Of a stretch of DNA of 64,000 nucleotides, positions 1,642 through 19,677 are shown in pieces. The stretch's first letter is position 1, and each line of letters opens with the position of its first letter. The stretch lies in the sequence record PP886230; one strand, 5' to 3'. The position numbers were made by a program, and so were the translations under genes. The DNA is from Escherichia phage vB_EcoM_E9.1. The notes under the pieces were generated by a model. It was given only the letters and a program-made list of their open reading frames with translations. It did no database searches and was not told the origin of the DNA.

Positions 1642-1669
1642 TTGCACCGTACTGATAAAAGCGTATAAT
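1642..1669 (+). promoter_or_regulatory. sigma70-type promoter (TTGCAC-N16-TATAAT) plus downstream leader hairpin
   Basis: -35/-10 hexamers; hairpin gcgggaa..ttcccgc follows; this cassette recurs before most early genes. Confidence 0.6.
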
Positions 1670-1725
1670 GTTTTACATCGAGAGCGGGAACACTTCCCGC
1701 TACACTTTAAGAGAGATTAATACGA

Positions 1726-2087
1726 TGGCAACTCAAATCACCAAAATTATTGCTAACCTGGTTAACTTCCGCGACGAGATGAAAGATCTTCCGGCGGCGA
1801 CGGTTAAAACTCACATTGACGCATACCGCGAACTGATTAAAATGCTGCCGCTTAAGCGTGAACAATACGCCGCTACCGTGATGCTTGATGCGATGATCCA
1901 TAAGATGATCGCCAGTGATTTGACGATGGTTTATCAGTATATGGGCGAAAATTTCGCGGTGTGTAGTAAGCCAGTACCAGGGATGGCAACAACTGAGGAA
2001 TTGCACGGCTTAAACTTAAAACAAGATGCATGGGATAATATGCCTCGTTTCCTGGTATGGGCTGACAGTGGCAAAATTTACAAATAA
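1726..2087 (+). CDS. hypothetical early protein
   Basis: ORF with promoter, leader hairpin and SD upstream; the track ORF from 1668 begins inside the promoter. Confidence 0.65.
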
Positions 2088-2101
2088 GTTTAATAAAGTA
2101 C

Positions 2102-2129
2102 TTGCAAACTATGTTTAATGGCGTATAAT
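2102..2129 (+). promoter_or_regulatory. sigma70-type promoter (TTGCAA-N16-TATAAT)
   Basis: Consensus hexamers followed by leader hairpin ggtggggaa..ttccccac. Confidence 0.6.
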
Positions 2130-2182
2130 GTTTTACATCAGGTGGGGAATAGTTCCCCACTATATAAGAGGATTAAAAAAAA

Positions 2183-2422
2183 ATGGCTAAATCAAAAATG
2201 TTCTTAGGTCACAAAAACAAAACTCATTGGAATGTAAGCCTGTGGATTAATAACGATGAGGGATTGTATCGGTTGGCCCTGGACTTTATTGCCGCCAATA
2301 CTAATCGCAATGATGCGGCCCGTCATATGATGTTATTTTTAGAACAGACTGGACAAGATAAAACACCGGACGGATTCAAATATAGCACTACTGCGATCCG
2401 TGCGGCGATGGTTGGAATGTAA
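2183..2422 (+). CDS. hypothetical early protein
   Basis: ORF 79 aa, SD aagagga upstream. Confidence 0.65.
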   Translation: MAKSKMFLGHKNKTHWNVSLWINNDEGLYRLALDFIAANTNRNDAARHMMLFLEQTGQDKTPDGFKYSTTAIRAAMVGM

Positions 2423-2510
2423 TAGAATAGAATTTATTTAAAGTACTATTGCACGGGGATAGTACTTTATAATAGTGTTTTATTCATACACCAACGATAA
2501 GGGCAACAGC

Positions 2511-2777
2511 ATGAATATTAAGTATTTTGCGACGCGTGAACAAGCTCGGATCGCCGCTCGCCAGGACGGGGCAACGTTTAAAGATATGGGCGTACAATCG
2601 GAACGTGGTAAACGTTGGGCCATTGTAAAGCGTAGTACCGCCAGATCATTACAGTACTGGTTAGCGGCCTTAAAAAGTCCCGATAGTGTATCGCGTCGAG
2701 TGGTAGAAATAAAGCTCGACCGAAAGGGCAACCGCGTGACCGTGTACCGTACTAAAAAGATTGCAGTACTTGAATAA
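2511..2777 (+). CDS. hypothetical early protein, paralogue of 14728-15123
   Basis: Shares FKDMG and DRKGNRVTVY with the later ORF; start moved to ATG after the promoter. Confidence 0.65.
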   Translation: MNIKYFATREQARIAARQDGATFKDMGVQSERGKRWAIVKRSTARSLQYWLAALKSPDSVSRRVVEIKLDRKGNRVTVYRTKKIAVLE

Positions 2778-2784
2778 AAAGTAC

Positions 2785-2812
2785 TTGCAAACTATGTTTA
2801 AAGGCGTATAAT
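2785..2812 (+). promoter_or_regulatory. sigma70-type promoter (TTGCAA-N16-TATAAT)
   Basis: Consensus hexamers plus leader hairpin. Confidence 0.6.
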
Positions 2813-2864
2813 GTTTTACATCGAGAGCGGGAACTCTTCCCGCCTATAACCTGGAGTAATAAAA

Positions 2865-3095
2865 ATGACTAATATGTATATGACTGAAGTTAAAACCGTA
2901 AAAGATACTACCACGAATAAAACTACTTACTTACAGCGGATCTGTGGTGTATGGCAACGTATCAGCAAATCAAAGTACTTTAAATTAACATCATATGCAA
3001 ACCGTTCTGATTCATTCAGTACTGAAATAAAAGGTAATAAAGTACACCAATACGGCACTTATTATTATTACAGCCTGGACGCGATTGCAGTATAA
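2865..3095 (+). CDS. hypothetical early protein
   Basis: ORF 76 aa; SD ggagt upstream. Confidence 0.6.
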   Translation: MTNMYMTEVKTVKDTTTNKTTYLQRICGVWQRISKSKYFKLTSYANRSDSFSTEIKGNKVHQYGTYYYYSLDAIAV

Positions 3096-3123
3096 GCAGT
3101 TTACAAATCTTTACAATTGCCGG

Positions 3124-3205
3124 TATTGACTTATTTTGTCAGTACTGGCATAATGTATTCATTGGCAGATAAGCCGTAGCCCATAGGGTGCGGGAGTGTA
3201 TCTAT
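3124..3205 (+). repeat. promoter-containing repeat element (REP copy, variant): TTGACT promoter followed by conserved core cccatagggtgc
   Basis: Matches the elements at 9337, 11025, 13372, 16361 and 18622. Confidence 0.55.
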
Positions 3206-3344
3206 AGAAAAATTAGTTTAGTATAGTTACAATTGTGCACCCGGTGGGTTAGCTGTTGTCATGGGGTATATTATGCCAGTACTTGATAATGCTGTCAATA
3301 CTTTTTTTTACTATCCAGTACAGAAAACTATTTTTAAAAAGTAC

Positions 3345-3372
3345 TTGCAAACTATGTTTAAAGGCGTATAAT
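3345..3372 (+). promoter_or_regulatory. sigma70-type promoter driving a short non-coding transcript
   Basis: TTGCAA-N16-TATAAT; no ORF before the next promoter. Confidence 0.55.
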
Positions 3373-3377
3373 GTTTT

Positions 3378-3460
3378 ACATCAGGACGGGGGAACGAAAT
3401 AAGTAACTTCCCGTTAAGTAGCCCAGGAGTAAGGCACACGAAAAACTCCCCTGATAAAAT
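3378..3460 (+). ncRNA. candidate small RNA (copy 1), about 85 nt between two promoters
   Basis: Conserved sequence with compensatory-looking stems (acgggg..ccccgt, atcagga..tcccctgat); second copy at 13532-13612; no ORF. Confidence 0.35.
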
Positions 3461-3463
3461 AGT

Positions 3464-3491
3464 TTGACAAATGTTTTTAAAAGCGTATAAT
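3464..3491 (+). promoter_or_regulatory. sigma70-type promoter (TTGACA-N16-TATAAT)
   Basis: Consensus hexamers. Confidence 0.6.
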
Positions 3492-3523
3492 ACTTACATC
3501 AACTACTGAATGAGGGTTACAAA

Positions 3524-4135
3524 ATGAAAACTATCACTACTACTACTTTCGTTATGGATTTTTCTGAATTGAACGCAGAACAAAAAACGTCAGCTATCGA
3601 ACTGGTTCGGGAACGTGAAAAAAACTCAAACGACAATTATTTTTCTGAAAGTGAAATTGAATACTATAAAGAAACAGTACTACCGGAATATGGCATTAAT
3701 GACGCTGAAATACAATTCAGTGGCTTTTGGTCCCAGGGTGACGGTGCATCAATCAGTACTGACCACGTTGACGCAGTGAAGTTTTTACGCAAGGTAAGAG
3801 CATTAACTAAGTATCGCTCAATCCGTCACTTGCTGAATGAAGATGATTTGGCGATGAGTGTAAAGCGTTCGCACTCCCACTACTCGCATGAGAATACTGT
3901 AAGCGGGTACATTGAATCGGCTTACACTGATTTAACCGCAAAACAAGAAACGTTAGTTAATGAGCTTGAGGAACTACTCACTGATACTATTCGTGAATTG
4001 TCCCGCAAGTTGTACCGTGATTTAGAGAATGCATATGAGGATCAATTCACTACTGAAAACATTACGGCACTGATTGAGGGTAACGAGTATCAATTCAATG
4101 TTATTGATGGCGTAGTGGAATCAATCGAATATTAA
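3524..4135 (+). CDS. hypothetical acidic protein (203 aa)
   Basis: ORF with SD gagggt; acidic composition. Confidence 0.7.
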   Translation: MKTITTTTFVMDFSELNAEQKTSAIELVREREKNSNDNYFSESEIEYYKETVLPEYGINDAEIQFSGFWSQGDGASISTDHVDAVKFLRKVRALTKYRSIRHLLNEDDLAMSVKRSHSHYSHENTVSGYIESAYTDLTAKQETLVNELEELLTDTIRELSRKLYRDLENAYEDQFTTENITALIEGNEYQFNVIDGVVESIEY

Positions 4136-4227
4136 TTTAAAAAGTACTTGCAAACTAAGTTTAAAAGCGTATAATACTTTATATCGAGAGCGGGAATAGT
4201 TCCCGCTACTAATGAGGAATACTACAA

Positions 4228-4392
4228 ATGAATACTTTTACCTTCGCTCAATTGAACGCCCTGGATGTATTGTCTGATGCTTTGCGGGATGCAACTGAAA
4301 GCGGTTTATTTGACAATGTTGACATTCACCCTGATGTAATTAATAATTTTTGTGATGCTATCGCAGAAGTACTGGAAGATCTAAAAAAATAA
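4228..4392 (+). CDS. hypothetical small protein (54 aa)
   Basis: ORF below the track cutoff with promoter, hairpin and SD gagga upstream. Confidence 0.5.
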   Translation: MNTFTFAQLNALDVLSDALRDATESGLFDNVDIHPDVINNFCDAIAEVLEDLKK

Positions 4393-4480
4393 TAGAAAGT
4401 ACTTGCAATTAGTTTTTAGTACTGTATAATGTTTTACATAGAGGGGAGAAATGGTTCTCCCTGGTAATGAGGAAAATACA

Positions 4481-4702
4481 ATGGCTAATATCACTACTCT
4501 TTCCCAACTGGAAGCACTGGTTAAATCTATGCGGGAACATGCCGACAATATCGGCGTAAAAGATCCAGCCGTTTGCTTCTGCGACGAATTGAATGATGAT
4601 ACCCTGGTAATAGCAGAAGTCCAGGACGTTTCTAACTATTCCTCGCGTTACACTGGCGGCGTAGCAAATAAAGGTGACTTCTGTTTATACCTTACCAAAT
4701 AA
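4481..4702 (+). CDS. hypothetical early protein
   Basis: ATG after the leader hairpin; the track ORF from 4451 starts inside the hairpin. Confidence 0.65.
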   Translation: MANITTLSQLEALVKSMREHADNIGVKDPAVCFCDELNDDTLVIAEVQDVSNYSSRYTGGVANKGDFCLYLTK

Positions 4703-4705
4703 CAA

Positions 4706-4737
4706 CGCGGGGAGATAATAACTCCCCGTTACTTTTT
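4706..4737 (+). terminator. rho-independent terminator
   Basis: GC hairpin cgcggggag..ctccccg then T-run. Confidence 0.6.
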
Positions 4738-4945
4738 CAGTACTGAATCATTTAATAGACGGATCTCGGCACCCGGTGGGTTAGTGACTGTTTCGTCTTG
4801 ATGTAGTAATTATGCCAGTACTGGATGCACTTGTCAACAACTATTTTTCAAATACTTTTTATTAAAATACTTGCTAATAGTTTTTAAACGCGTATAATGT
4901 TTTGCATAGGGGGAGCGGTTCCCCTGGTAACTAAGGAATAATAAA

Positions 4946-5182
4946 ATGCTTGAACAAATCAAATCAACGTCTGCGAATGTAACGGGAACGGTTGTACACT
5001 TTACTAGTGATGAATCGCGGGGCGTTCCCTATTGTGCTGTACATGTAAACACTGATGGCAACTACTGGTTTACGGTTTACGGATCATATTCATTTGGACG
5101 ACCAGGGCATCAAAAAATTCTGGATAAAGTACAGCCAACGGGTAAAAATATCACGGCTGAAATGTTTTATAAAAAATCATAA
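4946..5182 (+). CDS. hypothetical early protein
   Basis: ORF 78 aa with promoter, hairpin and SD. Confidence 0.65.
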   Translation: MLEQIKSTSANVTGTVVHFTSDESRGVPYCAVHVNTDGNYWFTVYGSYSFGRPGHQKILDKVQPTGKNITAEMFYKKS

Positions 5183-5267
5183 AGTACTTGATAATAGTTT
5201 TTAGTACTGTATAATATTTTACATCGCAAGGGGGTAATGGTTCCCCCTGGTAACTAAGGATAATCAA

Positions 5268-5567
5268 ATGAAAGTTGCATTCATCGCCCTGGCTTTATCT
5301 GTTTCCTCTTTTGCTGTTAATGCGTCGTTAGATGTAAGTAGTGAAAAATTCATTCAGTGCACTGTAGCAATGACAGATGAAAGTACTGGCGAGATTGTAT
5401 TAAAGGATCTGGAGATTCAGCCGGAAGCATTTAAAAACGGCCCGTTCCATGAAGAAGACGAAAACGGTAGCACAACAATTTATTATGATGCCAGTACTAA
5501 ACGCGGGTCGGTCACTGTTATGGATACTGAGAAAGTAACTCATACTGGCGTTATTAATTGCCGTTGA
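5268..5567 (+). CDS. putative secreted protein with N-terminal signal peptide
   Basis: N-terminus MKVAFIALALSVSSFAVNA is hydrophobic with an AxA-type site. Confidence 0.65.
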   Translation: MKVAFIALALSVSSFAVNASLDVSSEKFIQCTVAMTDESTGEIVLKDLEIQPEAFKNGPFHEEDENGSTTIYYDASTKRGSVTVMDTEKVTHTGVINCR

Positions 5568-5588
5568 TAGATACTACGGGGTAACATC

Positions 5589-5819
5589 ATGACTAAGCGA
5601 ATTGTTTTACTTAACGAAAGCAGTACTACACAACTACTTAACGCCGTGCATTATGATATTGAAACGAGCGTTAATCTTATCAGTACTGTAGTACTGTTGG
5701 ACACTGGAAAGGTCGCCAATGATAAAGCGATTGCAGGTATACTAACGGATCTTGAGCCTGGTAGCAGTGCACCAATAACGTTAAATGGTAAAGTGTTTAA
5801 TATTTTACTCACTGATTAA
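5589..5819 (+). CDS. hypothetical protein
   Basis: ORF 76 aa immediately downstream, SD present. Confidence 0.6.
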   Translation: MTKRIVLLNESSTTQLLNAVHYDIETSVNLISTVVLLDTGKVANDKAIAGILTDLEPGSSAPITLNGKVFNILLTD

Positions 5820-5825
5820 GTACAT

Positions 5826-5850
5826 AGCCCACCTGGTGGGCTTTTTTGTT
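5826..5850 (+). terminator. rho-independent terminator
   Basis: Hairpin agcccacctggtgggct then TTTTTT. Confidence 0.7.
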
Positions 5851-6050
5851 TTTGTAGTATCGTAGTACTGAGATACTTTGAAAATAGTTTTAAAAAAGTA
5901 GTTGACATTACCGCAGAAAAGCGTAGAATGTATTACATCAAGACGGGGAGCACTAAGTAGACCGCCAGTAAGTCGAACGAAAAACTGGACACGTCGAGAA
6001 AACTTTGATACACTAATAAACGTAAACTAAACTTTAATTGAGGATTTATA

Positions 6051-6533
6051 ATGGCTAATGTAAAATCATTCATCAAAGCACTGGTAGCAAATGAAACTAA
6101 CGTCGCGGCTGAGATCCTGGCTGAACTGGATAACGATACCATGAAAGCGGTACGCAATAATTTTAACATCGCGTACAGTACTGCGAAAGAACTACAAGCA
6201 AATAAAGCGGCAGAAATTGAAGCGGCAAAGGCGGCCCGTGAAGCAGAACTACAAGCAACAATCGAAAGTATCCAGGCGGCGGTGTCTGGATTGGATCTGG
6301 AAGTGGTTGTGGAAATGGCACATAAAGCCCTGGCGGTTAAGTATGGTGAAGATAAGCCAGAATCTAAACCCAAAAAATGGATTCAGGAACGCGTAGCGGT
6401 AGTACTGGACAACGGGGAAGAATATCTGATTCCGGTGCGTGGTAACTGTATTGCGGTAGTACTGGACGCTATCAAAGAAAGCGGTATGACTCGCGAGGAA
6501 TGGATCGAAGCTCATCGCAAAGTTGAAGCATAA
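6051..6533 (+). CDS. hypothetical Ala/Lys-rich protein (160 aa)
   Basis: ORF with TTGACA promoter near 5903 and a long leader; SD gagga. Confidence 0.7.
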   Translation: MANVKSFIKALVANETNVAAEILAELDNDTMKAVRNNFNIAYSTAKELQANKAAEIEAAKAAREAELQATIESIQAAVSGLDLEVVVEMAHKALAVKYGEDKPESKPKKWIQERVAVVLDNGEEYLIPVRGNCIAVVLDAIKESGMTREEWIEAHRKVEA

Positions 6534-6554
6534 CAATTAAAGTACTGAATCACT

Positions 6555-6582
6555 AGCCCACTGTATAAGTGGGCTTTTTTGT
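6555..6582 (+). terminator. rho-independent terminator
   Basis: Hairpin agcccactgtataagtgggct then TTTTTT. Confidence 0.7.
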
Positions 6583-6817
6583 GTTTATCGTTTACCAGGC
6601 CACCAGCACCGCCTAGAAACGATTCTAACGCATTAAACGGATTATCTGATGCATTGCCCTAGCTGGTGGCGTTAAGGCTGTAAGAACGCGATTGAGAGCG
6701 TTTAAAGTATTTTGCAAAAAGTAATAAAAAGTACTTGAACGATTAAGAGATTAGCGTATAATGTTTTACATCGAGAGGGGGAAACGGTTCTCCTTCCAAA
6801 TCAAAGGAATCAAAACA

Positions 6818-7045
6818 ATGGCTATTATCATTACTCGCGTATCTGGTACTACTGGCAACGAACAAGTAGTTGCAGTCATTACGAACAAGGCAGGTGCGGA
6901 ATTGCAAAATGCAATGAATACCTGGGCCGTTAATGAGTTCGGTCAGTGGGCAAGTGTAGCATACATTGAAACCTATCAAGTGCCGTCGATTAGTTTAACT
7001 GATTTGGGCGTTGAGCGTATCCTTTGCCTTGATGAATTAAATTAA
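6818..7045 (+). CDS. hypothetical early protein
   Basis: ATG after promoter and hairpin; the track ORF from 6761 starts in the promoter. Confidence 0.65.
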   Translation: MAIIITRVSGTTGNEQVVAVITNKAGAELQNAMNTWAVNEFGQWASVAYIETYQVPSISLTDLGVERILCLDELN

Positions 7046-7130
7046 AAAAGTACTTGCAAAGTAAATCGAATAAAGTATAATACATTACATCAAGGGGAGA
7101 AATGGTTCTCCCCACTACAAGGAAACTAAA

Positions 7131-7343
7131 ATGGCTATCATTACTAAAATCAAAGTTAGTAAATCACTGGTTAAACTTGAAGAAGTGAAAGAAGGTTATA
7201 AAGTATCTTGGTGCGGTATGTATCGGACGTTCGCAGATATAGATGATGCGATCAATTATTACACTGACACGGTTAAAAACTTTGTTCGTGCTGATGTGGT
7301 TATGGCAGTGGCAACATATAAAGCATCAAAAGAAAGTAAGTAA
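7131..7343 (+). CDS. hypothetical early protein, paralogue of 10287-10466
   Basis: N-terminus MAIITKIKV resembles MAIIAKTEI. Confidence 0.65.
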   Translation: MAIITKIKVSKSLVKLEEVKEGYKVSWCGMYRTFADIDDAINYYTDTVKNFVRADVVMAVATYKASKESK

Positions 7344-7424
7344 AAATATTATCACAGTACTATTGACATAGTTTGATAGTACTGGCATAATAACTTTTAT
7401 CAAGACAACTAAGAGGAAATTAAA

Positions 7425-7769
7425 ATGGCTAACATCAATACTATAGCAGCACAAAATATCAACCTGTCTTCTGTTGAAGTTGTACATATTGCCGCTCGGC
7501 GTTGGTTCCAGGCTTCATATGGTAACACTTATTTCTCTTTAAGTGTAGACGTAGAAATTGATGGTAATTTTATTGAAGTAGTAAACGTGCCGTTCCAATA
7601 TGGATACGGGGATCATTTTGACACTGTAGCAATGGAAGAATTTAGCAAGGTTATTAATATGGAAGGTAAAGAGTTTTTACGCGGTTCTTATCTTTCCCGT
7701 TTTTGCCGTGATAATAATATCACTGTTTATAGTTCTGTTAGTGATGTTAAACGCAAAAAAGATCTTTAA
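7425..7769 (+). CDS. hypothetical early protein, paralogue of 14309-14632
   Basis: Shared GNTY, YGYG and C-terminal DVKRKKD. Confidence 0.7.
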   Translation: MANINTIAAQNINLSSVEVVHIAARRWFQASYGNTYFSLSVDVEIDGNFIEVVNVPFQYGYGDHFDTVAMEEFSKVINMEGKEFLRGSYLSRFCRDNNITVYSSVSDVKRKKDL

Positions 7770-7849
7770 TTAGCTTTACTTTATGCAGATACTTTGATAT
7801 AGTGTCTGCATAGGGGAAAGAAATTAAATTAACTTAAGAGGATAGTATA

Positions 7850-8119
7850 ATGAAAAATATCAGTACTTTAATCGATGCAGGTACTCATGTTCGTCGGTCT
7901 ATGGTTGCAACCAGTACTACAAAACAAGTAGCGAGCGGTTATCTTGTATTTGTGCACGATGGTAAACTCCTGGAACGTTCAATCAATTTTGATGTTAAAA
8001 ACAATTGCCGTTTTATTATCTTTAAGCGTGAGCAATATAAAATTGATTTACCAGCAAAGCCCATTAGTGGGGCGTACAACGTGCAATCATTGTTTGAACG
8101 TCAACCATACACCTATTAA
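7850..8119 (+). CDS. hypothetical protein
   Basis: ORF 89 aa, SD aagagga. Confidence 0.6.
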   Translation: MKNISTLIDAGTHVRRSMVATSTTKQVASGYLVFVHDGKLLERSINFDVKNNCRFIIFKREQYKIDLPAKPISGAYNVQSLFERQPYTY

Positions 8120-8170
8120 TCAAAACATCGTTAGCGGTCGATTCAGGCCGCTTATATTGGGGATTATACC

Positions 8171-8443
8171 ATGAACGTTAATCAAGTACTGAATGAGATC
8201 GAAAGCATCATTAAACCGATGAAGCGTACTGATGCTATGTTAACACCGGAAGAATGCCGCCTTTATGAGCGTTACAGCGTCGAACAAGTCCAGGCAATGG
8301 CTATGGCTACCCCAGCCGTTAAACCGCCTGAGAATGCGTTACAGGACGTTACAGGGGATTATATCATCAATCCAGTACTAGGGAAGATGGCTGCAATCAC
8401 CGAAGATCAACAAGACTACTTAAGCCAGTACTTAAAAGGTTAA
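8171..8443 (+). CDS. hypothetical protein
   Basis: ORF 90 aa. Confidence 0.6.
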   Translation: MNVNQVLNEIESIIKPMKRTDAMLTPEECRLYERYSVEQVQAMAMATPAVKPPENALQDVTGDYIINPVLGKMAAITEDQQDYLSQYLKG

Positions 8444-8448
8444 TTAAT

Positions 8449-12288: not shown

Positions 12289-12315
12289 TATTAATTTAAT
12301 AGAGGATAACAATAA

Positions 12316-12639: not shown

Positions 12640-12722
12640 AAACTATTGACAATGCAACCCAGTACTGTATAATAGTTTACATGAAGGGGAGAAATGATTC
12701 TCCCCACTGAGAGGAAAGAAAA

Positions 12723-12935: not shown

Positions 12936-12952
12936 TAGAAGGAGTACAGCTT

Positions 12953-13045
12953 ATGCAAATGAATCCGATGATTATTGTTTTAGCTGTACTTATGATCATT
13001 CATGCAATTGTAGAAGTATTAACGCAATCAGGAGTAATAAAATGA
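12953..13045 (+). CDS. putative small membrane peptide (30 aa)
   Basis: SD aaggagt; hydrophobic; first of three overlapping micro-ORFs. Confidence 0.4.
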   Translation: MQMNPMIIVLAVLMIIHAIVEVLTQSGVIK

Positions 13046-13215
13046 TTCAAGTAGAATTATCAGTACTGAAAGATCTGTTTTATCGGTTAGGTACTACTGG
13101 AGAGTATCCTAAAAGTGATACCGCAAAACTTTTTGTATCACTCGACTTATGGCAACGCGAACAATTAGTAATGTCCTGGCGTAAAGGTAAAGCAGATCGC
13201 GAGGTGAAAGCATGA
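13042..13215 (+). CDS. hypothetical small protein (57 aa)
   Basis: ATGA overlap with upstream stop. Confidence 0.4.
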   Translation: MIQVELSVLKDLFYRLGTTGEYPKSDTAKLFVSLDLWQREQLVMSWRKGKADREVKA

Positions 13216-13361
13216 AAGAATTCTTATTCGAAGTAGTGTTTCAAGGTGTCGGTAGTAACCAACTGATTCGCTCAAGTGGTTACAATGTTAACCAGGCATG
13301 GAATAACATTAAACAAATGTACCCGAACGCTATCACCTATCGCAACCCGAAAGAAGTTTAA
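13212..13361 (+). CDS. hypothetical small protein (49 aa)
   Basis: ATGA overlap with upstream stop. Confidence 0.4.
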   Translation: MKEFLFEVVFQGVGSNQLIRSSGYNVNQAWNNIKQMYPNAITYRNPKEV

Positions 13362-13371
13362 AAATATTTGA

Positions 13372-13452
13372 AAAAGGGATTGACTCCGGTCAGTCCCTTT
13401 GCTATTATATACGCATAGAAACAATTCAGCCCACCGGGTGCATAAATGTATC
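13372..13452 (+). repeat. promoter-containing repeat element (REP copy)
   Basis: gggattgactccggtcagtccc..ctattatat then ..cagcccaccgggtgcataaatgtatc; Chi GCTGGTGG at 13451-13458. Confidence 0.6.
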
Positions 13453-13531
13453 TATTATATGCTGGTGGCTAGTACTGAAAACTATTTTTAAAAAGTACTT
13501 GCATTGTATTTAGAATCAAGTATAATGTTTT

Positions 13532-13612
13532 ACATCAGGACGGGGAACGAAACAAGTAACCCCGTTAAGTAGTCCAGGAGTAAGACATACGAAAACCTCC
13601 CCTGATAAAATA
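13532..13612 (+). ncRNA. candidate small RNA (copy 2)
   Basis: Near-identical to 3378-3460; substitutions look compatible with the proposed stems; sits between two promoters. Confidence 0.35.
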
Positions 13613-13674
13613 GTTTGACAATAGAAATTAAACGAGTATAATACTTACATCAACCACTGATAAGGAAACATAAA

Positions 13675-13950
13675 ATGCGGATTCTACTGACAGCTAACGA
13701 AATCGAACAAGTACTGACTACTAACCTGGAAGACTGGAAACGTGAAGCAGATATCCAGGCGGTTCAATGGTTAAATGATAAGTTAACGCCGGATGACTTA
13801 AGCAAGATTGTAGATCCTCAATTCTACGAAGATATCCACGACACCGCGTTAAGCGTCGAGGATGTACTAGATAAGCACTTTATTGATACTGATTTGCAGG
13901 TTTACGGTCGTAAAAACTTTATCACTATTCACGACATTTACAATAATTAA
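13675..13950 (+). CDS. hypothetical protein
   Basis: ORF 91 aa. Confidence 0.65.
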   Translation: MRILLTANEIEQVLTTNLEDWKREADIQAVQWLNDKLTPDDLSKIVDPQFYEDIHDTALSVEDVLDKHFIDTDLQVYGRKNFITIHDIYNN

Positions 13951-14037
13951 GTATTGACAAAGTATCTTAGTACTGTATAATAGTTTACATCAAGCGAGGG
14001 GAATGGTTCCCCTCCTAACTAAAAGAGAGAAATAAAA

Positions 14038-14220
14038 ATGGCTAAGTGCACTATCTGCAAGAAAGAAATAGTATTAGTTCCAAGTGCCCGTGAACGTGCC
14101 GCTCGGTTCGGTGGCAAAGCGTCAGACTATACAAAAATGTTTACTACCCATACAGCTTGCCAGGTAGCAAAACGTTCACAAGAAAGCGTAGAATTAATGC
14201 GTAAACTTTCCAAAAAATAA
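14038..14220 (+). CDS. hypothetical basic protein
   Basis: ORF 60 aa with promoter and hairpin. Confidence 0.6.
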   Translation: MAKCTICKKEIVLVPSARERAARFGGKASDYTKMFTTHTACQVAKRSQESVELMRKLSKK

Positions 14221-14308
14221 GTATTGACAAAGTATCTTAGTACTGTATAATAGTTTACATCAAGTGAGGGGAAACGGTTCCCCTCCTAACAAAGAGAGAG
14301 AAATAAAA

Positions 14309-14632
14309 ATGGCTATGATCCTTGCCCAGAAAGTAGAATTGAAAATTGTAACCTCCTTTGACATTAACGTTAATCGGTGGACTGATTCACACGGCAATAC
14401 TTACCACTCTTGCTACGTGTCTGCGTTAATTGGCGACCGCTGGGAAGACCTGGGACACGAAACCTTTACATACGGTTACGGTACACAAGGCGAATACACG
14501 GGCTTGGAGATCATTAAAGAAACCGTTATAGGTTTCAACCCGAAAGAAAAAGTTATTCACCGCATCGAGGAAGAGATCAACAAAGAAATAACAGTTCGCT
14601 ACCACGATGTAAAACGTAAGAAAGACATGTAA
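14309..14632 (+). CDS. hypothetical protein, paralogue of 7425-7769
   Basis: ATG after leader hairpin; shared DVKRKKD C-terminus. Confidence 0.7.
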   Translation: MAMILAQKVELKIVTSFDINVNRWTDSHGNTYHSCYVSALIGDRWEDLGHETFTYGYGTQGEYTGLEIIKETVIGFNPKEKVIHRIEEEINKEITVRYHDVKRKKDM

Positions 14633-14727
14633 TAGAATCCATTTAAAGTACTATTTGACATTGCCCAGATAGTACTTTATAATAGACTCTAACTTGTAGT
14701 ACTAACTTAACTAATAGGATGTATACC

Positions 14728-15123
14728 ATGATTACTAAATTCTACGCTACCCGTGAAGCTGCCCGTATTGTTGCACGCGAGGAAGGCGAAACATTTAAAG
14801 ACATGGGCAAAGATGCACCGAAAGGTCAACGCTGGGCCGTACAGTTCAAAGAGATCTCTGATATTGTGAATTCACCGGAGCCAGTACTAACAGCAGCAGA
14901 ACTAAAACGAGCGGATTTACTGGCGTCAATACTTGATGCACAAGATGAGTTTATCGCTGATTCTGATATCAAAGTACAGACAAACCACACCGCTTGGACT
15001 CACGCGGATCACCTGGCAAACCTTAAGCGTCCAAGTGAACTGATTCGCAACCAGAAAGAGATCCGACACGACCGTAAGGGTAATCGTGTAACAGTATACA
15101 GTAAACGCCGCCAGGTTATCTAA
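14728..15123 (+). CDS. hypothetical protein, paralogue of 2511-2777
   Basis: SD agga 8 nt upstream of ATG 14728; shared FKDMG and DRKGNRVTVY. Confidence 0.7.
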   Translation: MITKFYATREAARIVAREEGETFKDMGKDAPKGQRWAVQFKEISDIVNSPEPVLTAAELKRADLLASILDAQDEFIADSDIKVQTNHTAWTHADHLANLKRPSELIRNQKEIRHDRKGNRVTVYSKRRQVI

Positions 15124-15145
15124 TAACTTGCAGTACTAACAACAC

Positions 15146-15171
15146 GGCGGGATCAGTTCCCGCCTTTTTTA
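15146..15171 (+). terminator. rho-independent terminator
   Basis: Hairpin ggcgggatcagttcccgcc then TTTTTT. Confidence 0.7.
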
Positions 15172-15184
15172 TAGGACAAACAAA

Positions 15185-15439
15185 ATGATTAAGGTTCAAC
15201 TATATAAAGATAACATCTTACGGGTACACTATAAAGCACCTCAGAGAATCATCACAAAGGCCGTACAGCTTGCTAATGAGTTTATTAATGGTAACCTATT
15301 ACCAAGGAAGTTAAGCAACGGGAAACTGCGTGTAATCGATGTGGACACTAACAACAGAATAGTAATAGAGAACACAGGAAAAATAAACCTATATGAACAC
15401 CAACAATATAATAAGAAAATAAAACTAATATCACGTTGA
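15185..15439 (+). CDS. hypothetical protein
   Basis: ORF 84 aa. Confidence 0.55.
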   Translation: MIKVQLYKDNILRVHYKAPQRIITKAVQLANEFINGNLLPRKLSNGKLRVIDVDTNNRIVIENTGKINLYEHQQYNKKIKLISR

Positions 15440-15492
15440 CAGTACTCAAATGTTTTAGTACTATATGTACATACCAACACGGGGGAAACAAA

Positions 15493-15735
15493 ATGATTAC
15501 TTTAGAAAAACGTATCAAAGAAACTACATCGCTGGTGGAACTGTTAACAGTACTCAAATGTAAAACAACACCATTCAGCACGCCGGACTTTATTAATATG
15601 GTTGATGTTAATGGTCGCTATCGTATCACGGTCGAACAAGGAGCGGCGAAAGTATTCAGTACTAAAAACACGAAGGAAGTGATCCACGCCGTTAATGTTA
15701 AAAAAGTAGTTGCCATTGATAGTAAAGTACTGTAA
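15493..15735 (+). CDS. hypothetical protein
   Basis: ATG after gggggaaacaaa; the track ORF starts upstream at 15436. Confidence 0.55.
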   Translation: MITLEKRIKETTSLVELLTVLKCKTTPFSTPDFINMVDVNGRYRITVEQGAAKVFSTKNTKEVIHAVNVKKVVAIDSKVL

Positions 15736-15766
15736 GATAGTTACATTAACTCAAGGAGAACATGCA

Positions 15767-16351
15767 ATGCGTAATTATACTAAATTCATCCGTACACTGT
15801 CAGAAATGGAAACCAACAAAGAGATCCTTTCAGCTTGTCGGTTAGCTGGCCTGGAGATCATCGGTGCTGGTTCTTCCCGTATAGTATTCGCTTTAAATGA
15901 TCGGTTAGTGATTAAGGTCGCGAATTGTGATGCGGGTGTAGAACAAAATGAAACTGAATGTAAGGTATGGAATTTTTTAGACTATGACCGCCCTCAGTTG
16001 AAACAGTACTTTGCAAAGGTGCATATGCATTTATGCGATCCTGATAATATGTTTATCGTTATGGATCGGTTGAGTACTGCAAGCAAAGGCAGCGTAAAGC
16101 ACGTTAACGCGTGCAACGAATTAAAGTATAATATTAAACGTAATGCCATTGAACGCCAGCACCGCTTTGCTGATGCACTACAACACGTTGATGATACATT
16201 ATCAACACTAACGATAAGAGATATCAGAAAACAGAATATCGGCCAGGATCGTAATGGACTTATTAAAGTACTTGATTACGGTTTAACCCGCAATATCTGG
16301 AATCAGTACTATAAAAAGCGTGATGTAGAAGCAAGTAAGGTAACACGATAA
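15767..16351 (+). CDS. minimal protein-kinase-like protein (putative Ser/Thr kinase)
   Basis: Gly-rich loop IGAGSSRIVF, VIKV lysine, IRDIRKQNIG resembling HRDLKPENI, and DYG in place of DFG; SD aaggaga 6 nt upstream. Confidence 0.55.
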   Translation: MRNYTKFIRTLSEMETNKEILSACRLAGLEIIGAGSSRIVFALNDRLVIKVANCDAGVEQNETECKVWNFLDYDRPQLKQYFAKVHMHLCDPDNMFIVMDRLSTASKGSVKHVNACNELKYNIKRNAIERQHRFADALQHVDDTLSTLTIRDIRKQNIGQDRNGLIKVLDYGLTRNIWNQYYKKRDVEASKVTR

Positions 16352-16360
16352 AAAAAGATT

Positions 16361-16465
16361 AAAAAAGGGATTGACTCCGGTCAGTCCCTTTGCTATTATA
16401 TATTCATTGAGAGATAACTCACTGACCCATAGGGTGCGGAAGTGTATCTATTATATAAGTATTCA
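16361..16465 (+). repeat. promoter-containing repeat element (REP copy)
   Basis: gggattgactccggtcagtccc..ctattatat then ..cactgacccatagggtgcggaagtgtatc. Confidence 0.6.
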
Positions 16466-16573
16466 GTACTGAAAACTATTTTTAAAAAGTACTTGCATTG
16501 TACTTAGAATCAAGTATAATGTTTTATATCGAGAGGGGAAATGGTTCTCCCTCAAAGAACAAGGAATAAAATC

Positions 16574-16795
16574 ATGACTACAATGACTTGCATTCACGCT
16601 TCAAACCTGCTTAATGATGCGGCCTTTAATGTTGAAACAGAATATCAATGTTATCGGGATGAAAATAAAAAAGTTTTTGTAGTTGATAATAATGGTTTCC
16701 ATATTGAATTGCAATCCGGCTTCACTGGCGTTGATGGTAAATCAGTATGGGGCGTACAGGATGATAAAGGCACATATCATTTTAAACGTAATTAA
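16574..16795 (+). CDS. hypothetical protein
   Basis: ATG after SD aaggaat; the track ORF from 16541 starts in the leader hairpin. Confidence 0.65.
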   Translation: MTTMTCIHASNLLNDAAFNVETEYQCYRDENKKVFVVDNNGFHIELQSGFTGVDGKSVWGVQDDKGTYHFKRN

Positions 16796-16881
16796 GTATT
16801 GACAAAGTATATCAGTACTGTATAATAGTTTACATCAAGGGGAGAATAGTTCTCCCCACACCAATAAAAGGAAACATAATT

Positions 16882-17154
16882 ATGTCTAGCTACTCCGCTA
16901 CTATGATCATTAAAGATATGAACGGTAATCCTACTTCTGCTGGTGGATCATTTGGAAACATTAATTTAGATGGTCGGTTATCCATGCAATCAGCAATCGA
17001 TGCAGCGAAAGAAGTTTTTAAGAATGAATGTACTGTTAGTAAGCTGGATTATATGGGATTTGCTATCGAAAAAACTAATCGTTTTGTGGACTACAAAAAA
17101 CCACTGATGATTGATACTAACCTGAAAGCAAACGAAGTGGAGTACTTATTATGA
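16882..17154 (+). CDS. hypothetical protein
   Basis: ORF 90 aa with promoter and hairpin. Confidence 0.65.
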   Translation: MSSYSATMIIKDMNGNPTSAGGSFGNINLDGRLSMQSAIDAAKEVFKNECTVSKLDYMGFAIEKTNRFVDYKKPLMIDTNLKANEVEYLL

Positions 17155-17342
17155 CAGTTGAAGAAGTAAAAAAAGTACTGGCAGTACTACGCTATCATAA
17201 TCATTGTAAGGTGAAGAATGATCCTGATTATCTTGATTCATCCCTGGAAGAGGATACACTACAAGCAATAAGCCATATGCAAAAAATGCTTAAGCGTATG
17301 ACCGAAAAGAACAGGCCAGACTATATCGGAAATAAAATTTAA
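17151..17342 (+). CDS. hypothetical protein
   Basis: ORF 63 aa, ATGA overlap. Confidence 0.55.
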   Translation: MTVEEVKKVLAVLRYHNHCKVKNDPDYLDSSLEEDTLQAISHMQKMLKRMTEKNRPDYIGNKI

Positions 17343-17428
17343 AAAGTACTTGCATTGTAGTTAGATTAACGTATAATGTTTTACATAGAGCGGGGGAATA
17401 GTTCTCCCGCCAGTCCAGGAGATACACC

Positions 17429-17692
17429 ATGAACACTATCGAAATCACTATCAATGCACACGTATACGACAACGTAGTACTGCAAACTACTATGACCGCT
17501 AATGATACCAGTACTTTGCGGAATACTGTTATTAGTGCCGTATGTGCCGCTATCGGTGATGTCGCCCTGGAAAATGCAAAACACGTAAACGATGGTTTCA
17601 CTATGTGCAAACGTGATAACGCAAAACATATCATCGTGGAAGGTTACGGCGGTGTAGAATTTAATGTTTATATGAAAAAAGTACTTGCATAA
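17429..17692 (+). CDS. hypothetical protein
   Basis: ORF 87 aa with promoter, hairpin and SD. Confidence 0.65.
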   Translation: MNTIEITINAHVYDNVVLQTTMTANDTSTLRNTVISAVCAAIGDVALENAKHVNDGFTMCKRDNAKHIIVEGYGGVEFNVYMKKVLA

Positions 17693-17759
17693 TAACTAAA
17701 ACAAAGTATAATGTTTTGCATAGGGGGAGATATCCTCCCCCACTAAAAGGAGTACTAAA

Positions 17760-17984
17760 ATGGCTAACTTTGATGAACTGATGCGGGAAGTAGCTAACCT
17801 GGCAGAAGAGAAGAAATCATTCGATTCTATCTATAACACCGCTCATCGTGATTCAGTACTGGCATGTAACCAGGATCAAAAAGATGAACTAATCGCCACC
17901 TATCATGAAGCATGGAAGTACTACCGACAATGGGAGAAAGAAGAAAGCGAGTCTACCATCAACGGCATCAATAATCTAATCTAA
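17760..17984 (+). CDS. hypothetical protein
   Basis: ORF 74 aa with promoter and hairpin. Confidence 0.65.
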   Translation: MANFDELMREVANLAEEKKSFDSIYNTAHRDSVLACNQDQKDELIATYHEAWKYYRQWEKEESESTINGINNLI

Positions 17985-18060
17985 AAGTTTTATTTCAGTA
18001 CTATTGACATAGCTTGATAGTACTGATGTAATAACTTTACTAACTACAAGGGGAAACATA

Positions 18061-18318
18061 ATGGAACAGTTCACACAATATCGGGTAAATCCTCAAGCTA
18101 TGGCCTACGTAGAAGACCATAAAACGTTACCAGTACTGCAACCAGTTAAAGGCCATATCTATCGTGCAATGTCGTGGTGTGCGGCCCAGGATGGCTATAA
18201 AACCGTAGCCGTGGGTATGTACTGCGGTAATGGTGAATGGTTTGATCCAAATAATCCGGTAGCCATTGACAGTACTGAAAAAATGAAATGGGCCGACTAC
18301 ATCGAAGATATTTCATAA
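18061..18318 (+). CDS. hypothetical protein
   Basis: ORF 85 aa. Confidence 0.65.
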   Translation: MEQFTQYRVNPQAMAYVEDHKTLPVLQPVKGHIYRAMSWCAAQDGYKTVAVGMYCGNGEWFDPNNPVAIDSTEKMKWADYIEDIS

Positions 18319-18408
18319 AAACTATTTGACAGTACTAACCAGTAATGTATAATGTTTTACATAGAGCGGGGGAATAGTTCTCCCGCCAATAGTTTGGAGT
18401 TAAACATT

Positions 18409-18609
18409 ATGTCTATCGCTATCTCCCTGGTTGAAGTACTGAAAGAAGCTAAAGCCAACCAGATCGACGTAAAGATCCAGGAACTACAAAACGGCTTAAT
18501 CGGCTGTACTTGTACCGCTGGTGGAGCGGCAGACTATCGAGAACACGAATCACTCGAATCACTGGTTCGGTATCTTTCCATGATCGTTGATGATTGGAGA
18601 ATCATCTAA
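18409..18609 (+). CDS. hypothetical protein
   Basis: ATG after the hairpin; the track ORF from 18352 starts in the promoter. Confidence 0.6.
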   Translation: MSIAISLVEVLKEAKANQIDVKIQELQNGLIGCTCTAGGAADYREHESLESLVRYLSMIVDDWRII

Positions 18610-18621
18610 CAAAAAAGAATA

Positions 18622-18705
18622 AAAAAGGGATTGACTCCGGTCAGTCCCTTTGCTATTATATACGCATAGACAAAAACTAGCCCACAGGGTGCATAGGTGT
18701 ATCCA
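18622..18705 (+). repeat. promoter-containing repeat element (REP copy)
   Basis: gggattgactccggtcagtccc..ctattatat then ..ctagcccacagggtgcataggtgtatc; Chi at 18739-18746 just downstream. Confidence 0.6.
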
Positions 18706-18853
18706 AAATATATAGTTAATAACGGTGAGTAACTATCTGCTGGTGGAACTAAAACTATTAATAAAAAAGTATTGACAAAGTATATCAGTACTGCGATAAT
18801 GTATCTCGTAGGGCGGCAATGGTGCGACGGCCCACAAAGTTAGGAGATTCAAA

Positions 18854-19186
18854 ATGACTACTTCAATCGCTATCGTTAAAGCTTTCATCCGTACTAATGT
18901 TTCCTCTGTATTCATCGACGGCCTCGACCGTAACGTAGAATACTCAATCATTATCGCACAAACGGCAAACGGTTCTCGGTACATCCTGAATGATAGTGAA
19001 GCAAATCACTACTACTTCACTAAAGCCACTGGCTTTAAACGCATCGATGCTGATGTAGTATACGCTAAGATGAATAAGCTGGTAGATAAGATTAACGCTA
19101 AAGGTACTATAGATTTACAGTACTGGACCGAAACCGATCCAGAGTATGGATCTCACCGCTACCTGAATCCAGGTATCAAAATGTAA
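18854..19186 (+). CDS. hypothetical protein
   Basis: ORF 110 aa; TTGACA promoter near 18772 with a long structured leader. Confidence 0.7.
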   Translation: MTTSIAIVKAFIRTNVSSVFIDGLDRNVEYSIIIAQTANGSRYILNDSEANHYYFTKATGFKRIDADVVYAKMNKLVDKINAKGTIDLQYWTETDPEYGSHRYLNPGIKM

Positions 19187-19275
19187 AAAGTACTTGCATA
19201 GTACTTAGATTCATGTATAATGTTTTACATAGAGAGGGGGAAATGGTTCTCCCTCCTAAATTAAGGAGTTTTATC

Positions 19276-19677
19276 ATGACCTTCTCAATCAATTCCTTCG
19301 CTGACGTTTTAGTACTGGCCCGGACTTTTGGTAAAGATGCACTGGAGTACGCTGTAAGTAATGGCACTATCCAACCGGAACAGTGCCGCATCATTGGAAA
19401 CTGCAAACGTTGGGCGGTATCCAATACTATTGCACTGGAAAACTTCCACGATGGCAACAATGAATATTCTGTTGATGTAGTATTCGAAGCCGTTGATCTC
19501 GGCGGTATCTATAATACTAACCTGAATGATGTGCGTATCGTTCGCACGGGGTTCGGTGCTTATGATGTATCTATCCGTGAAGCTATGAACACCGGATACA
19601 TTAGCAAGGACTTACTTGCTCACATCATGCAGCTGTGTACGGAACGTAACGAAGCACGTACTATCTTAGGGCTGTAA
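19276..19677 (+). CDS. hypothetical protein
   Basis: ATG after SD taaggagt; the track ORF from 19213 starts in the promoter. Confidence 0.7.
   Translation: MTFSINSFADVLVLARTFGKDALEYAVSNGTIQPEQCRIIGNCKRWAVSNTIALENFHDGNNEYSVDVVFEAVDLGGIYNTNLNDVRIVRTGFGAYDVSIREAMNTGYISKDLLAHIMQLCTERNEARTILGL

Follow-up and report, generated by a model that had tools for sequence, protein, structure and literature searches.

The 64,000 nucleotides (nt) of Escherichia phage vB_EcoM_E9.1 analysed here (sequence record PP886230; one strand, 5' to 3'), which we call the window, represent, judging by their identity to sequenced relatives, the left end of the genome of an Asteriusvirus, that is, of a Rak2-like Escherichia jumbo phage. 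Within the first 20 kb the same cassette stands again and again in front of small genes: a sigma70-type promoter, a short hairpin in the predicted leader, and a Shine-Dalgarno (SD) sequence with its ATG. Positions 1600-9600 are 91-97% identical to vB_EcoM_CRJP21, EC.P1, WPEC5, fEgEco12, slurp01 and others, and the window opens with the same bases as fEgEco12, starting from base 1 of that genome. That phage's direct terminal repeat (DTR), 20,993 bp long, was established by PhageTerm together with restriction digestion (PMC13070987), and its end (20,993) falls, by exact 25-mer mapping, at position 20107 of the window. Since both the start and the DTR end of fEgEco12 map in this way, we take 1-20107 to be the left DTR; the region 1642-19300, in which an earlier note on this DNA had described the cassette, therefore lies entirely within it. 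A homologous DTR (19,736 bp, 50 genes) is annotated in the related Klebsiella phage fENko-Kae01. The G+C content is approximately 38.6-38.9% within the repeat, as against 32-33% beyond it. There are no cassettes in the window from 20 to 64 kb, nor are there any in the 3-16 kb that precede the homologue of the DTR in circularly permuted assemblies of relatives.

We searched for the promoter with a signature that takes no account of the hairpin, TTG-N19-TATAAT-RNNTTNYAT. This signature has 27 matches, all of them on the + strand and spread from 366 to 19230, where shuffled sequences lead us to expect 0.01. The sequence AGTACTTGCAA, allowing at most 2 mismatches, is matched 115 times against an expectation of 24.8, and a general sigma70 scan likewise finds an excess of strong sites on the + strand. 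Downstream of 22 of the 27 signature promoters, and also of a variant promoter at 12025-12053 with a 17-bp spacer and the -10 box TATAGT, lies a hairpin of 6-9 bp. The DTR and the 23 units are as follows, with the length in amino acids (aa) of the open reading frame (ORF) that each ATG opens.

1-20107, +: left direct terminal repeat, by mapping from fEgEco12; holds every cassette
1634-1724, +: cassette; -35 TTGCAC 1642, -10 TATAAT 1664, hairpin 1683-1701, ATG 1725 (120 aa)
2094-2182, +: cassette; -35 2102, -10 2124, hairpin 2141-2161, ATG 2183 (79 aa)
2777-2864, +: cassette; -35 2785, -10 2807, hairpin 2827-2843, ATG 2865 (76 aa)
4140-4227, +: cassette; -35 4148, -10 4170, hairpin 4189-4207, ATG 4228 (54 aa)
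4395-4480, +: cassette; -35 4403, -10 4425, hairpin 4443-4462 (one G·U), ATG 4481 (73 aa)
4863-4945, +: cassette; -35 TTGCTA 4871, -10 4893, hairpin 4907-4926, ATG 4946 (78 aa)
5180-5267, +: cassette; -35 TTGATA 5188, -10 5210, hairpin 5229-5248, ATG 5268 (99 aa; annotated 'spackle' in fEgEco12)
6727-6817, +: cassette; -35 TTGAAC 6735, -10 6757, hairpin 6775-6796 (two G·U), ATG 6818 (75 aa)
7046-7130, +: cassette; -35 7054, -10 7076, hairpin 7094-7113, ATG 7131 (70 aa; ORF 89% identical in nucleotides in phage A7_1)
8641-8728, +: cassette; -35 8649, -10 8671, hairpin 8691-8707, ATG 8729 (48 aa)
8871-8956, +: cassette; -35 8879, -10 8901, hairpin 8919-8938, ATG 8957 (50 aa)
9467-9553, +: cassette; -35 9475, -10 9497, hairpin 9516-9534, ATG 9554 (113 aa)
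9902-9991, +: cassette; -35 TTGACA 9910, -10 9932, hairpin 9950-9969, ATG 9992 (70 aa)
12017-12099, +: variant cassette; -35 TTGCAT 12025, 17-bp spacer, -10 TATAGT 12048, hairpin 12064-12082 (5-nt loop), ATG 12100 (62 aa)
12638-12722, +: cassette; -35 12646, -10 12668, hairpin 12686-12705, ATG 12723 (70 aa)
13946-14037, +: cassette; -35 13954, -10 13976, hairpin 13996-14014, ATG 14038 (60 aa; module common to Justusliebigvirus)
14216-14308, +: cassette; -35 14224, -10 14246, hairpin 14266-14285, ATG 14309 (107 aa)
16485-16573, +: cassette; -35 16493, -10 16515, hairpin 16535-16550, ATG 16574 (73 aa)
16791-16881, +: cassette; -35 16799, -10 16821, hairpin 16839-16857, ATG 16882 (90 aa)
17342-17428, +: cassette; -35 17350, -10 17372, hairpin 17390-17410 (one G·U), ATG 17429 (87 aa)
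17677-17759, +: cassette; -35 17685, -10 17707, hairpin 17723-17741 (5-nt loop), ATG 17760 (74 aa)
18318-18408, +: cassette; -35 18326, -10 18348, hairpin 18366-18386, ATG 18409 (66 aa)
19186-19275, +: cassette, the last before the DTR end; -35 19194, -10 19216, hairpin 19234-19255, ATG 19276 (133 aa)

The upstream part of each unit has the look of a sigma70-type promoter whose -10 box matches the consensus. An A-rich tract precedes it, and the palindrome AGTACT usually abuts the -35 box (TTGCAA, TTGCAT or TTGACA); there follow a spacer of 16 bp, in agreement with the earlier note, the hexamer TATAAT, an A/T-rich discriminator, and a conserved CAT in the start region. The hairpin begins 8-14 nt past the -10 hexamer (+13 to +20 when counted from the -10 box's first base) and has a loop of 3-5 nt, or of 8 nt in a single unit (-10 box at 5210). 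After the hairpin come about 20 nt of A-rich, unstructured RNA bearing the SD sequence and the ATG, so placed that the distance from hairpin end to ATG is 17-24 nt in the 23 units; the ORFs opened are 48-133 aa long. The predicted leaders measure 40-50 nt, with a mean folding free energy (dG) of -13.3 kcal/mol (about -10 to -16). Assuming that transcription starts at the A of CAT, the unpaired 5' tail before the hairpin is predicted to have a median of 5 nt and a range of 1-7. It had been claimed that this unit precedes more than 25 early genes. The unit is present, and beyond chance, but the canonical units of cassette plus gene number 23, and reach 26-28 only when variants are counted.

The anatomy of the cassette also explains, as had been suggested, why a number of predicted ORFs begin MFYIESG: the ATG of TATAATG opens the codons ATG TTT TAC ATC GAG AGC GGG. 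In four cassettes this ATG of the -10 box shares the reading frame of the downstream gene (ORFs 1668-2087, 6761-7045, 8675-8875 and 18352-18609). Judging from this arrangement, we regard the MFYIESG ORFs as artefacts of the ATG inside the -10 box. For example, the coding sequence (CDS) g01 of fEgEco12 (L008 1689-2108) begins MFYIESGNTSRY, that is, inside the -10 box, and for its counterpart CRJP21 annotates a shorter start that is preceded by an SD sequence.

In 25 of the 27 signature matches, counting from the -10 box, the palindrome AGTACT (mostly cAGTACTg) occupies -27 and/or -7. It is approximately 20-fold over-represented in the terminal repeat as a whole (133 copies versus 6.5 expected), and 6-9-fold elsewhere in the window. 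It is enriched within coding sequence too, in all three frames (4.5 per kb), as well as in the non-coding left end. So strong an enrichment of a palindrome is out of the ordinary; a regulator or a nucleoid protein may bind there.

We turn now to the hairpin. All 20 of the leaders that were folded have negative z-scores relative to shuffled sequences (-1.2 to -4.0), and each forms one dominant hairpin with the SD sequence unpaired. The arms of the stem have a constant polarity, with purines (G-rich) in the 5' arm and pyrimidines (C/U-rich) in the 3' arm, and the loops differ in sequence (UAG, AUGG, ACGG, ACAUC, CAC). Alignments were made from the unique hairpins of the window and of seven related loci; because MAFFT applied to whole cassettes failed to register the stems, stem counts were taken on ungapped, loop-anchored alignments grouped by loop length. 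It should be kept in mind that this set was ascertained by hairpin score, and that many of its hairpins are paralogous or orthologous, so that alignment cells are not independent events. In the alignment that we call A2, 92.4% of cells pair, compared with 76.6% when columns are shuffled, and 26 cells are altered on both sides, compared with 8.1; neither value is reached in any of 500 shuffles. Controls in which the partner column is slid pair in at most 67% of cells, and alignment A3, the set with 4-nt loops, behaves in the same way as A2. Over the pooled 51 unique hairpins, 94.6% of cells pair versus 79.4% (0 of 2000 shuffles). The pairs G-C, A-U and C-G interchange at five or six stem positions, so that 5-6 of the 9 stem pairs have been altered on both sides. 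These are the distal pairs; the two A-U pairs next to the loop (GAA...UUC) vary little or not at all. The proposal that the stem is kept while its sequence varies is thus borne out by the covariation.

The pairs that are not Watson-Crick indicate on which strand this selection acts. At stem positions 1-7 there are 12 G·U pairs, 1 U·G and 1 A·C. Transitions away from a perfect palindrome would produce G·U and A·C equally often; G·U is far the more frequent, and therefore the strand under selection is the sense strand. A covariance model of the hairpin, run over all 64 kb, points the same way: its matches are the cassette sites plus one genuine terminator (15145-15165), and + strand scores exceed those of the - strand by 7-14 bits. 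These patterns suggest that selection maintains the pairing of the hairpin in the transcribed sense strand, most simply in its RNA form. Orthologous hairpins are identical in 62 of 70 cases, in genomes that differ by 3-7% overall, and this near-invariance is consistent with constraint; among the 7 changes available for a substitution test between orthologues, 4 preserve pairing and 3 break it, too few to be informative. Rfam covariance models give no relevant match at E <= 1 in positions 1-22000, and a tRNA scan found none.

Three familiar classes of hairpin element were considered and rejected. An intrinsic terminator is rejected, for there is no U tract in 22 of the 23 units, the tails are A-rich, and the hairpin lies in its own transcript; the sole leader hairpin that passes even a lax terminator rule is that at 8691-8707. 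Canonical U-tract terminators do occur in the region, at 4707-4729, 5826-5842, 6555-6575, 15146-15164 and 19702-19721. A double-stranded operator or cruciform is contradicted by the covariation, by the asymmetry of G·U versus A·C, and by the strand-specific model scores. A hairpin promoter of the N4 type, serving a virion RNA polymerase, is rejected as well: canonical -35 and -10 boxes are present, and the hairpin is downstream of them.

The cassettes also mark places at which related genomes differ. Comparing positions 1-21000 of the window with five Asteriusvirus relatives by megablast, we find 26 unique breakpoints of collinearity. Cassettes make up 17.7% of the sequence and hold thirteen of them (P = 1.7e-4); 18 fall inside promoter units of any kind. 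At duplicated cassettes the ends of collinear blocks overlap, for example at 9557/9466, 16894/16794 and 8696/8870, a pattern that we read as the signature of exchange from cassette to cassette. The gene at 8729 (48 aa) is missing from CRJP21, and the junction lies within cassettes. Similarly, most Asteriusvirus carry, at 95-98% identity, the module 13940-14310, which comprises a hairpin, an ORF, and the promoter and hairpin that follow; in 121Q, JP4, UE-S1, phAPEC6 and SHEFM2K it is reduced to flanking cassette sequence, and it recurs at 87-88% identity in Justusliebigvirus phages of about 147 kb. Altogether, 169 phage records contain matches to cassette sequence, among them records of Vequintavirinae, Phapecoctavirus and Justusliebigvirus. 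The corresponding loci of PHB05 (phi92-like) and A7_1 (Vequintavirinae) have the same cassette architecture, and several small ORFs are common to the window and to these two phages at 73-90% nucleotide identity (e.g., 89.2% for 7119-7404 and 89.8% for 13998-14297). These comparisons suggest that the cassettes act as boundaries of recombination or mobility, both within and between phage families.

The closest known elements, called PeSLs (promoter-early stem-loops), have been described in the T4-type phages RB49/phi1, PST/T4 and nt-1/KVP40 (Arbiol et al. 2010, PMC2839356; Comeau et al. 2014, PMC4122927). A PeSL consists of a sigma70 promoter close to consensus and preceded by an AT-rich tract, a stem-loop of the form G_n-loop-C_n, and the SD sequence and ATG of an ORFan; PeSLs cluster in hyperplastic regions, they mediate modular shuffling and the formation of mini-circles, and their stem-loop is terminator-like in a reporter assay (PMC2839356, PMC4122927). 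The units of the window share with them a sigma70-like early promoter with an AT-rich upstream region (although the spacer is 16 bp rather than 17), an adjacent stable G-rich/C-rich stem-loop (here 6-9 bp, dG -10 to -16 kcal/mol), the SD sequence and ATG of a small gene of mostly unknown function in a dense hyperplastic region (here 23 units, 48-133 aa), and coincidence with junctions of indels or replacements between close relatives. They differ in position. When scored by the same script, the stem-loop of RB49 starts between -18 and 0, counted from the -10 box (for example, TTGACAggggatcaccgatccccTATACT), whereas here it starts at +13 to +20. The PeSL stem-loops lie within or upstream of the promoter, and have been read as terminators of upstream transcription; here the hairpin is in its own leader and has no U tract. 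The elements also differ in their setting: a Rak2-like jumbo phage, confinement to a direct terminal repeat, and modules common across phage families. By blastn the cassette has no sequence similarity to RB49. On this comparison the cassette appears PeSL-like: its anatomy, its G-then-C polarity and its genomic behaviour match, and its defining position does not. What is new with respect to PeSLs is the hairpin borne on the leader, the confinement to the terminal repeat of a jumbo phage, and the sharing across families.

Two other comparisons concern the place of the hairpin and the place of the genes. Emory, Bouvet and Belasco in 1992 and Arnold et al. in 1998 reportedly described 5'-terminal stabilising stem-loops in the ompA and papA mRNAs of E. 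coli. Classical stabilising stem-loops work with at most a few unpaired nucleotides at the very 5' end. In the cassette, likewise, a short, stable hairpin lies near the mRNA's 5' end and the ribosome site after it is accessible, but the hairpin has a tail of about 5 nt (range 1-7) measured from a start that is predicted only. In phage T5, the terminal repeat carries the pre-early (first-step-transfer) genes, among them many small host-takeover genes, with very strong sigma70 promoters. The likeness lies in a long direct terminal repeat that holds many small host-takeover genes and is present in two copies per genome; we know of no stereotyped leader hairpin in T5. The promoter class itself is familiar in the same or related phage groups, since RpoD-like early promoters with UP-like elements have been reported in the Rak2-like phages CBB and GAP32, in PA5oct and in rV5 (PMC5259590, PMC7318152, PMC3606486), and some of those in CBB lie within its 22-kb terminal repeat. 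The papers on RaK2, CBB, PA5oct, rV5, fEgEco12 and fENko-Kae01 that we searched mention no leader hairpin, no cassette, and no link to gene shuffling.

Among the genes behind the cassettes are one for a DksA/TraR zinc-finger protein, one for a GNAT acetyltransferase, and one with a weak match to protein kinases; the remaining genes of the cassette region belong to PHROG families of unknown function, and many are ORFans. This content agrees with a role in host takeover, and early expression of the cassette genes would agree both with their location in the terminal repeat and with their being small genes of the host-takeover type.

We propose, with middling confidence, that the unit is a self-contained cassette for early expression, whose 5' hairpin protects and insulates the message, and which doubles as portable homology. 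Host sigma70 RNA polymerase would fire from each cassette as the terminal repeat enters the cell, and transcription would start 8 nt beyond the -10 box, where the A of the conserved CAT lies, as standard start-site preferences predict. The leader would then fold, as RNA, into some 5 unpaired nt, a hairpin of 6-9 bp, and an open SD/ATG. The hairpin would form a protective and insulating structure near the 5' end that slows 5'-end-dependent decay, and it would stop its pyrimidine-rich segment from pairing with the SD sequence. Approximately 23 unrelated small early ORFs would in this way obtain a uniform, strong and context-independent output. At the level of DNA, the conserved cassettes of about 90 bp would have a second role, providing portable homology for the insertion, deletion and exchange of modules of cassette plus ORF. 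The interpretation offered in the earlier note stands, then, as regards the sigma70 promoter, the selection on the stem and the MFYIESG artefacts; its suggestion that the hairpin stabilises the mRNA or controls translation is taken up here in conditional form. It did not recognise the terminal repeat, the likeness to PeSLs, or the behaviour of the cassettes as boundaries of recombination and mobility.

Three observations tie the role of the hairpin to the 5' end of the primary transcript. The hairpin is never seen without a promoter 8-14 nt upstream; in the phi92-like phage PHB05 it holds the same position even though the flanks of the promoter are non-homologous; and the promoter-less genes of the region (e.g., 5589, 8171, 8449, 12316, 13042 and 17151) have no leader hairpin.

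Several considerations weigh against our proposal. The literature that we searched holds no data on transcription start, RNA half-life or timing for Asteriusvirus or PBECO4-type phages. The predicted tail of about 5 nt (range 1-7) perhaps places the hairpin too far from the end for classical 5'-terminal protection, enzymes of the RppH type require just 2-3 unpaired nt (PMC3997798), and RNase E readily scans past simple orthogonal stem-loops (PMC9943677). For these reasons classical protection is possibly weak, and the last of them in particular lowers our confidence in stabilisation. Furthermore, G·T wobble is tolerated in a hairpin of non-template-strand DNA, so that RNA and single-stranded DNA are not formally separable. 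The constant spacing and the G-then-C polarity could in part reflect common descent or concerted evolution of paralogous cassettes instead of function. Finally, a bias of breakpoints towards intergenic sequence is expected regardless, because under selection for intact genes only whole-gene indels survive; the association of breakpoints with cassettes is supportive, not proof.

Depending upon what the two arms of the stem do, the hairpin might serve ends other than protection. The 3' arm is anti-SD-like: in the absence of the 5' arm, its duplex with the SD sequence has a mean of -4.1 kcal/mol, compared with -1.95 kcal/mol for shuffled SD regions. On these folding calculations the 5' arm may mainly keep the ribosome site open, or it may underlie a switch. 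One alternative, which we consider unlikely, is a purely translational element: at the 5' edge of the 30S footprint it would insulate the ribosome-binding site or enhance it, and would leave mRNA decay unaffected. The tight distance from hairpin to ATG (17-24 nt), the SD sequence that is always single-stranded, and the 3' arm that would pair with it if the 5' arm were removed are all expected of such an element. The strict coupling of the hairpin to a promoter and its absence from the promoter-less genes of the region are not, and the tight spacing may simply be inherited along with the cassette.

It is also conceivable, but rather improbable, that the hairpin is an attenuator or terminator in the style of the PeSLs, which damps read-through from upstream promoters so that each gene depends mainly on its own. 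In a reporter assay the G_n-loop-C_n stem-loop of the RB49/phi1 PeSL cut lacZ expression as much as a strong terminator did (PMC2839356), and damping would be helpful among at least 20 co-oriented strong promoters with few canonical terminators between them. Being downstream of its own start site, however, the hairpin would also attenuate its own gene; only one of the hairpins is followed by a U tract, the tails being A-rich; where transcripts evidently need to end, the region employs canonical U-tract terminators; and the stem-loop of RB49 sits elsewhere, in the spacer that separates the -35 box from the -10 box.

An RNA operator shared by the whole early class, in which a phage or host RNA-binding protein or nuclease reads the loop-proximal GAA...UUC and shuts these genes off, for instance by releasing the 3' arm so that it pairs with the SD sequence, seems to us doubtful in much the same degree. 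A hairpin of purely thermodynamic function would not usually combine invariant, or nearly invariant, loop-proximal A-U pairs with covarying distal pairs, the complementarity of the 3' arm to the SD sequence exceeds chance, and the RegB nuclease of T4 targets GGAG in early leaders (PMC3014915), a motif that many of the 5' arms here contain. Set against this, we have identified no candidate binding protein, the alternative pairing of 3' arm with SD is weak (-0.3 to -8.3 kcal/mol), the loops are variable, and the conservation is explicable by recent common descent.

A more elaborate version, a long shot in our estimation, is an RNA switch that spans the regulon. The 5' arm would be an anti-anti-SD that occupies the 3' arm, until a phage factor of the early or middle period frees the 3' arm onto the SD sequence; the candidates for this factor are an RNA-binding protein and a nuclease like RegB that acts on the GGAG/GAA side. 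If this were true, translation of the entire class of terminal-repeat genes would be shut off at once, and, since the switch moves with each cassette, any ORF captured from a different phage would be enrolled in the same temporal programme.

Lastly, that the inverted repeat acts only as double-stranded or cruciform DNA, as the site of a dimeric regulator or as a hotspot of recombination, the RNA hairpin being incidental, is highly improbable: the cassettes do coincide with recombination junctions, and in RB49 crossovers map in or beside the PeSL stem-loop (PMC2839356), but an operator would conserve its sequence, where here 5-6 of 9 stem pairs have changed on both sides, G·U mismatches of the sense strand, which would read A·C on the opposite strand, predominate by about 12:1, the purine/pyrimidine polarity of the arms is fixed, and the covariance model strongly favours the + strand.

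We consider the system to be of moderate interest, coherent and useful to specialists rather than startling. It provides a testable picture of how a phage of 350-380 kb organises the first minutes of infection, with about two dozen unrelated small genes of the terminal repeat sharing one socket of promoter, leader and ribosome site, and it marks genes that are probably immediate-early and concerned with host takeover. It extends the idea of the PeSL, in which regulatory cassettes double as recombination sites, from T4-type to Rak2-like jumbo phages, and to exchange among the unrelated Asteriusvirus, Vequintavirinae and Stephanstirmvirinae, with whole modules at approximately 87-90% nucleotide identity. 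In addition, it corrects start-codon artefacts in public records (the MFYIESG CDSs that begin within the -10 box), and it offers a compact natural part made of a strong promoter and an insulated leader.

Some signature promoters of the repeat are followed by something other than the canonical hairpin. The following four lie on the + strand.

3337-3465, +: signature promoter with an ~85-nt structured non-coding leader; -10 at 3367; a second promoter (-10 at 3486) serves gene 3524-4135
13491-13616, +: second copy of promoter and ~85-nt structured leader; -10 at 13521; then a promoter at 13637
10494-10565, +: signature promoter without hairpin; -10 at 10516; before gene 10566-10709
11608-11664, +: signature promoter without hairpin; -10 at 11630; before the GNAT acetyltransferase gene 11665-12021

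The promoter at 366 has a different downstream structure in place of the canonical hairpin. That at 5902 is related to those at 3345 and 13499, and it too is followed by an ~85-nt structured non-coding leader and then by a second promoter. This leader, or small RNA, lies at 3379-3465 and 13533-13616 (related: 5936-6030), and also at L002 5232-5320; it folds with a closing helix AUCAGG...CCUGAU around two inner hairpins, is 88-90% identical in the unrelated Vequintavirinae phage A7_1, and has no match in Rfam.

A second class of promoter without leader hairpin occurs at 7363-7391, 10224-10252 and 18004-18032 (and at 10494-10521). It has the form cAGTACTaTTGACAtagtttgatAGTACTggCATAAT, with a 17-bp spacer, a -10 box preceded by TG, and both hexamers flanked by AGTACT. 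This hairpin-less class may be separately regulated.

At 9335-9370, 13373-13408, 16364-16399 and 18624-18659, terminators and promoters are fused: the hairpin AAAGGGATTGACTCCGGTCAGTCCCTTT includes the -35 box TTGACT, and its T-run runs into the -10 box TATTAT (AAAGGGATTGACTCCGGTCAGTCCCTTT-GCTATTAT). These four units have the classical PeSL arrangement, in which a terminator hairpin contains the -35 box, and they resemble the 'promoter-coupled terminators' of a 2026 preprint (10.64898/2026.08.19.745784).

Another repeated unit contains a GGGTG whose ends lie at 1251, 3190, 9407, 11084, 13440, 16436 and 18691 on the + strand and, in the opposite orientation, at 4770, 3238, 1299 and 1083 on the - strand. 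It is laid out as a sigma70 promoter, about 30 nt, and the sequence cacta(a/g)CCCAnnGGGTGC....gtgtatct. The pairs 3190(+)/3238(-) and 1251(+)/1299(-) are convergent and overlapping, and complementary short transcripts are therefore possible. The unit is kept in the DTR of Klebsiella phage fENko-Kae01 and has no match in Rfam.

The left end of the genome, at positions 1-1640 of the window, is non-coding and has many copies of cAGTACTg, together with promoter-like sites that face both outward and inward. At 810-901 there is a degenerate tandem array with a 16/40-nt period (GGCTAGACG...). These features may be related to the terminus or to packaging.

Just past the boundary of the DTR, from 20205 to approximately 26000, the organisation changes: small ORFs are tightly packed or overlapping and have no individual promoters, and the G+C content falls to 32-33%. 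The first of these ORFs that we read (about 65-70 aa) start alike, with MRILTKEQH and MKMRILNKEEY, and relatives annotate the same type of small-ORF array after the DTR boundary.

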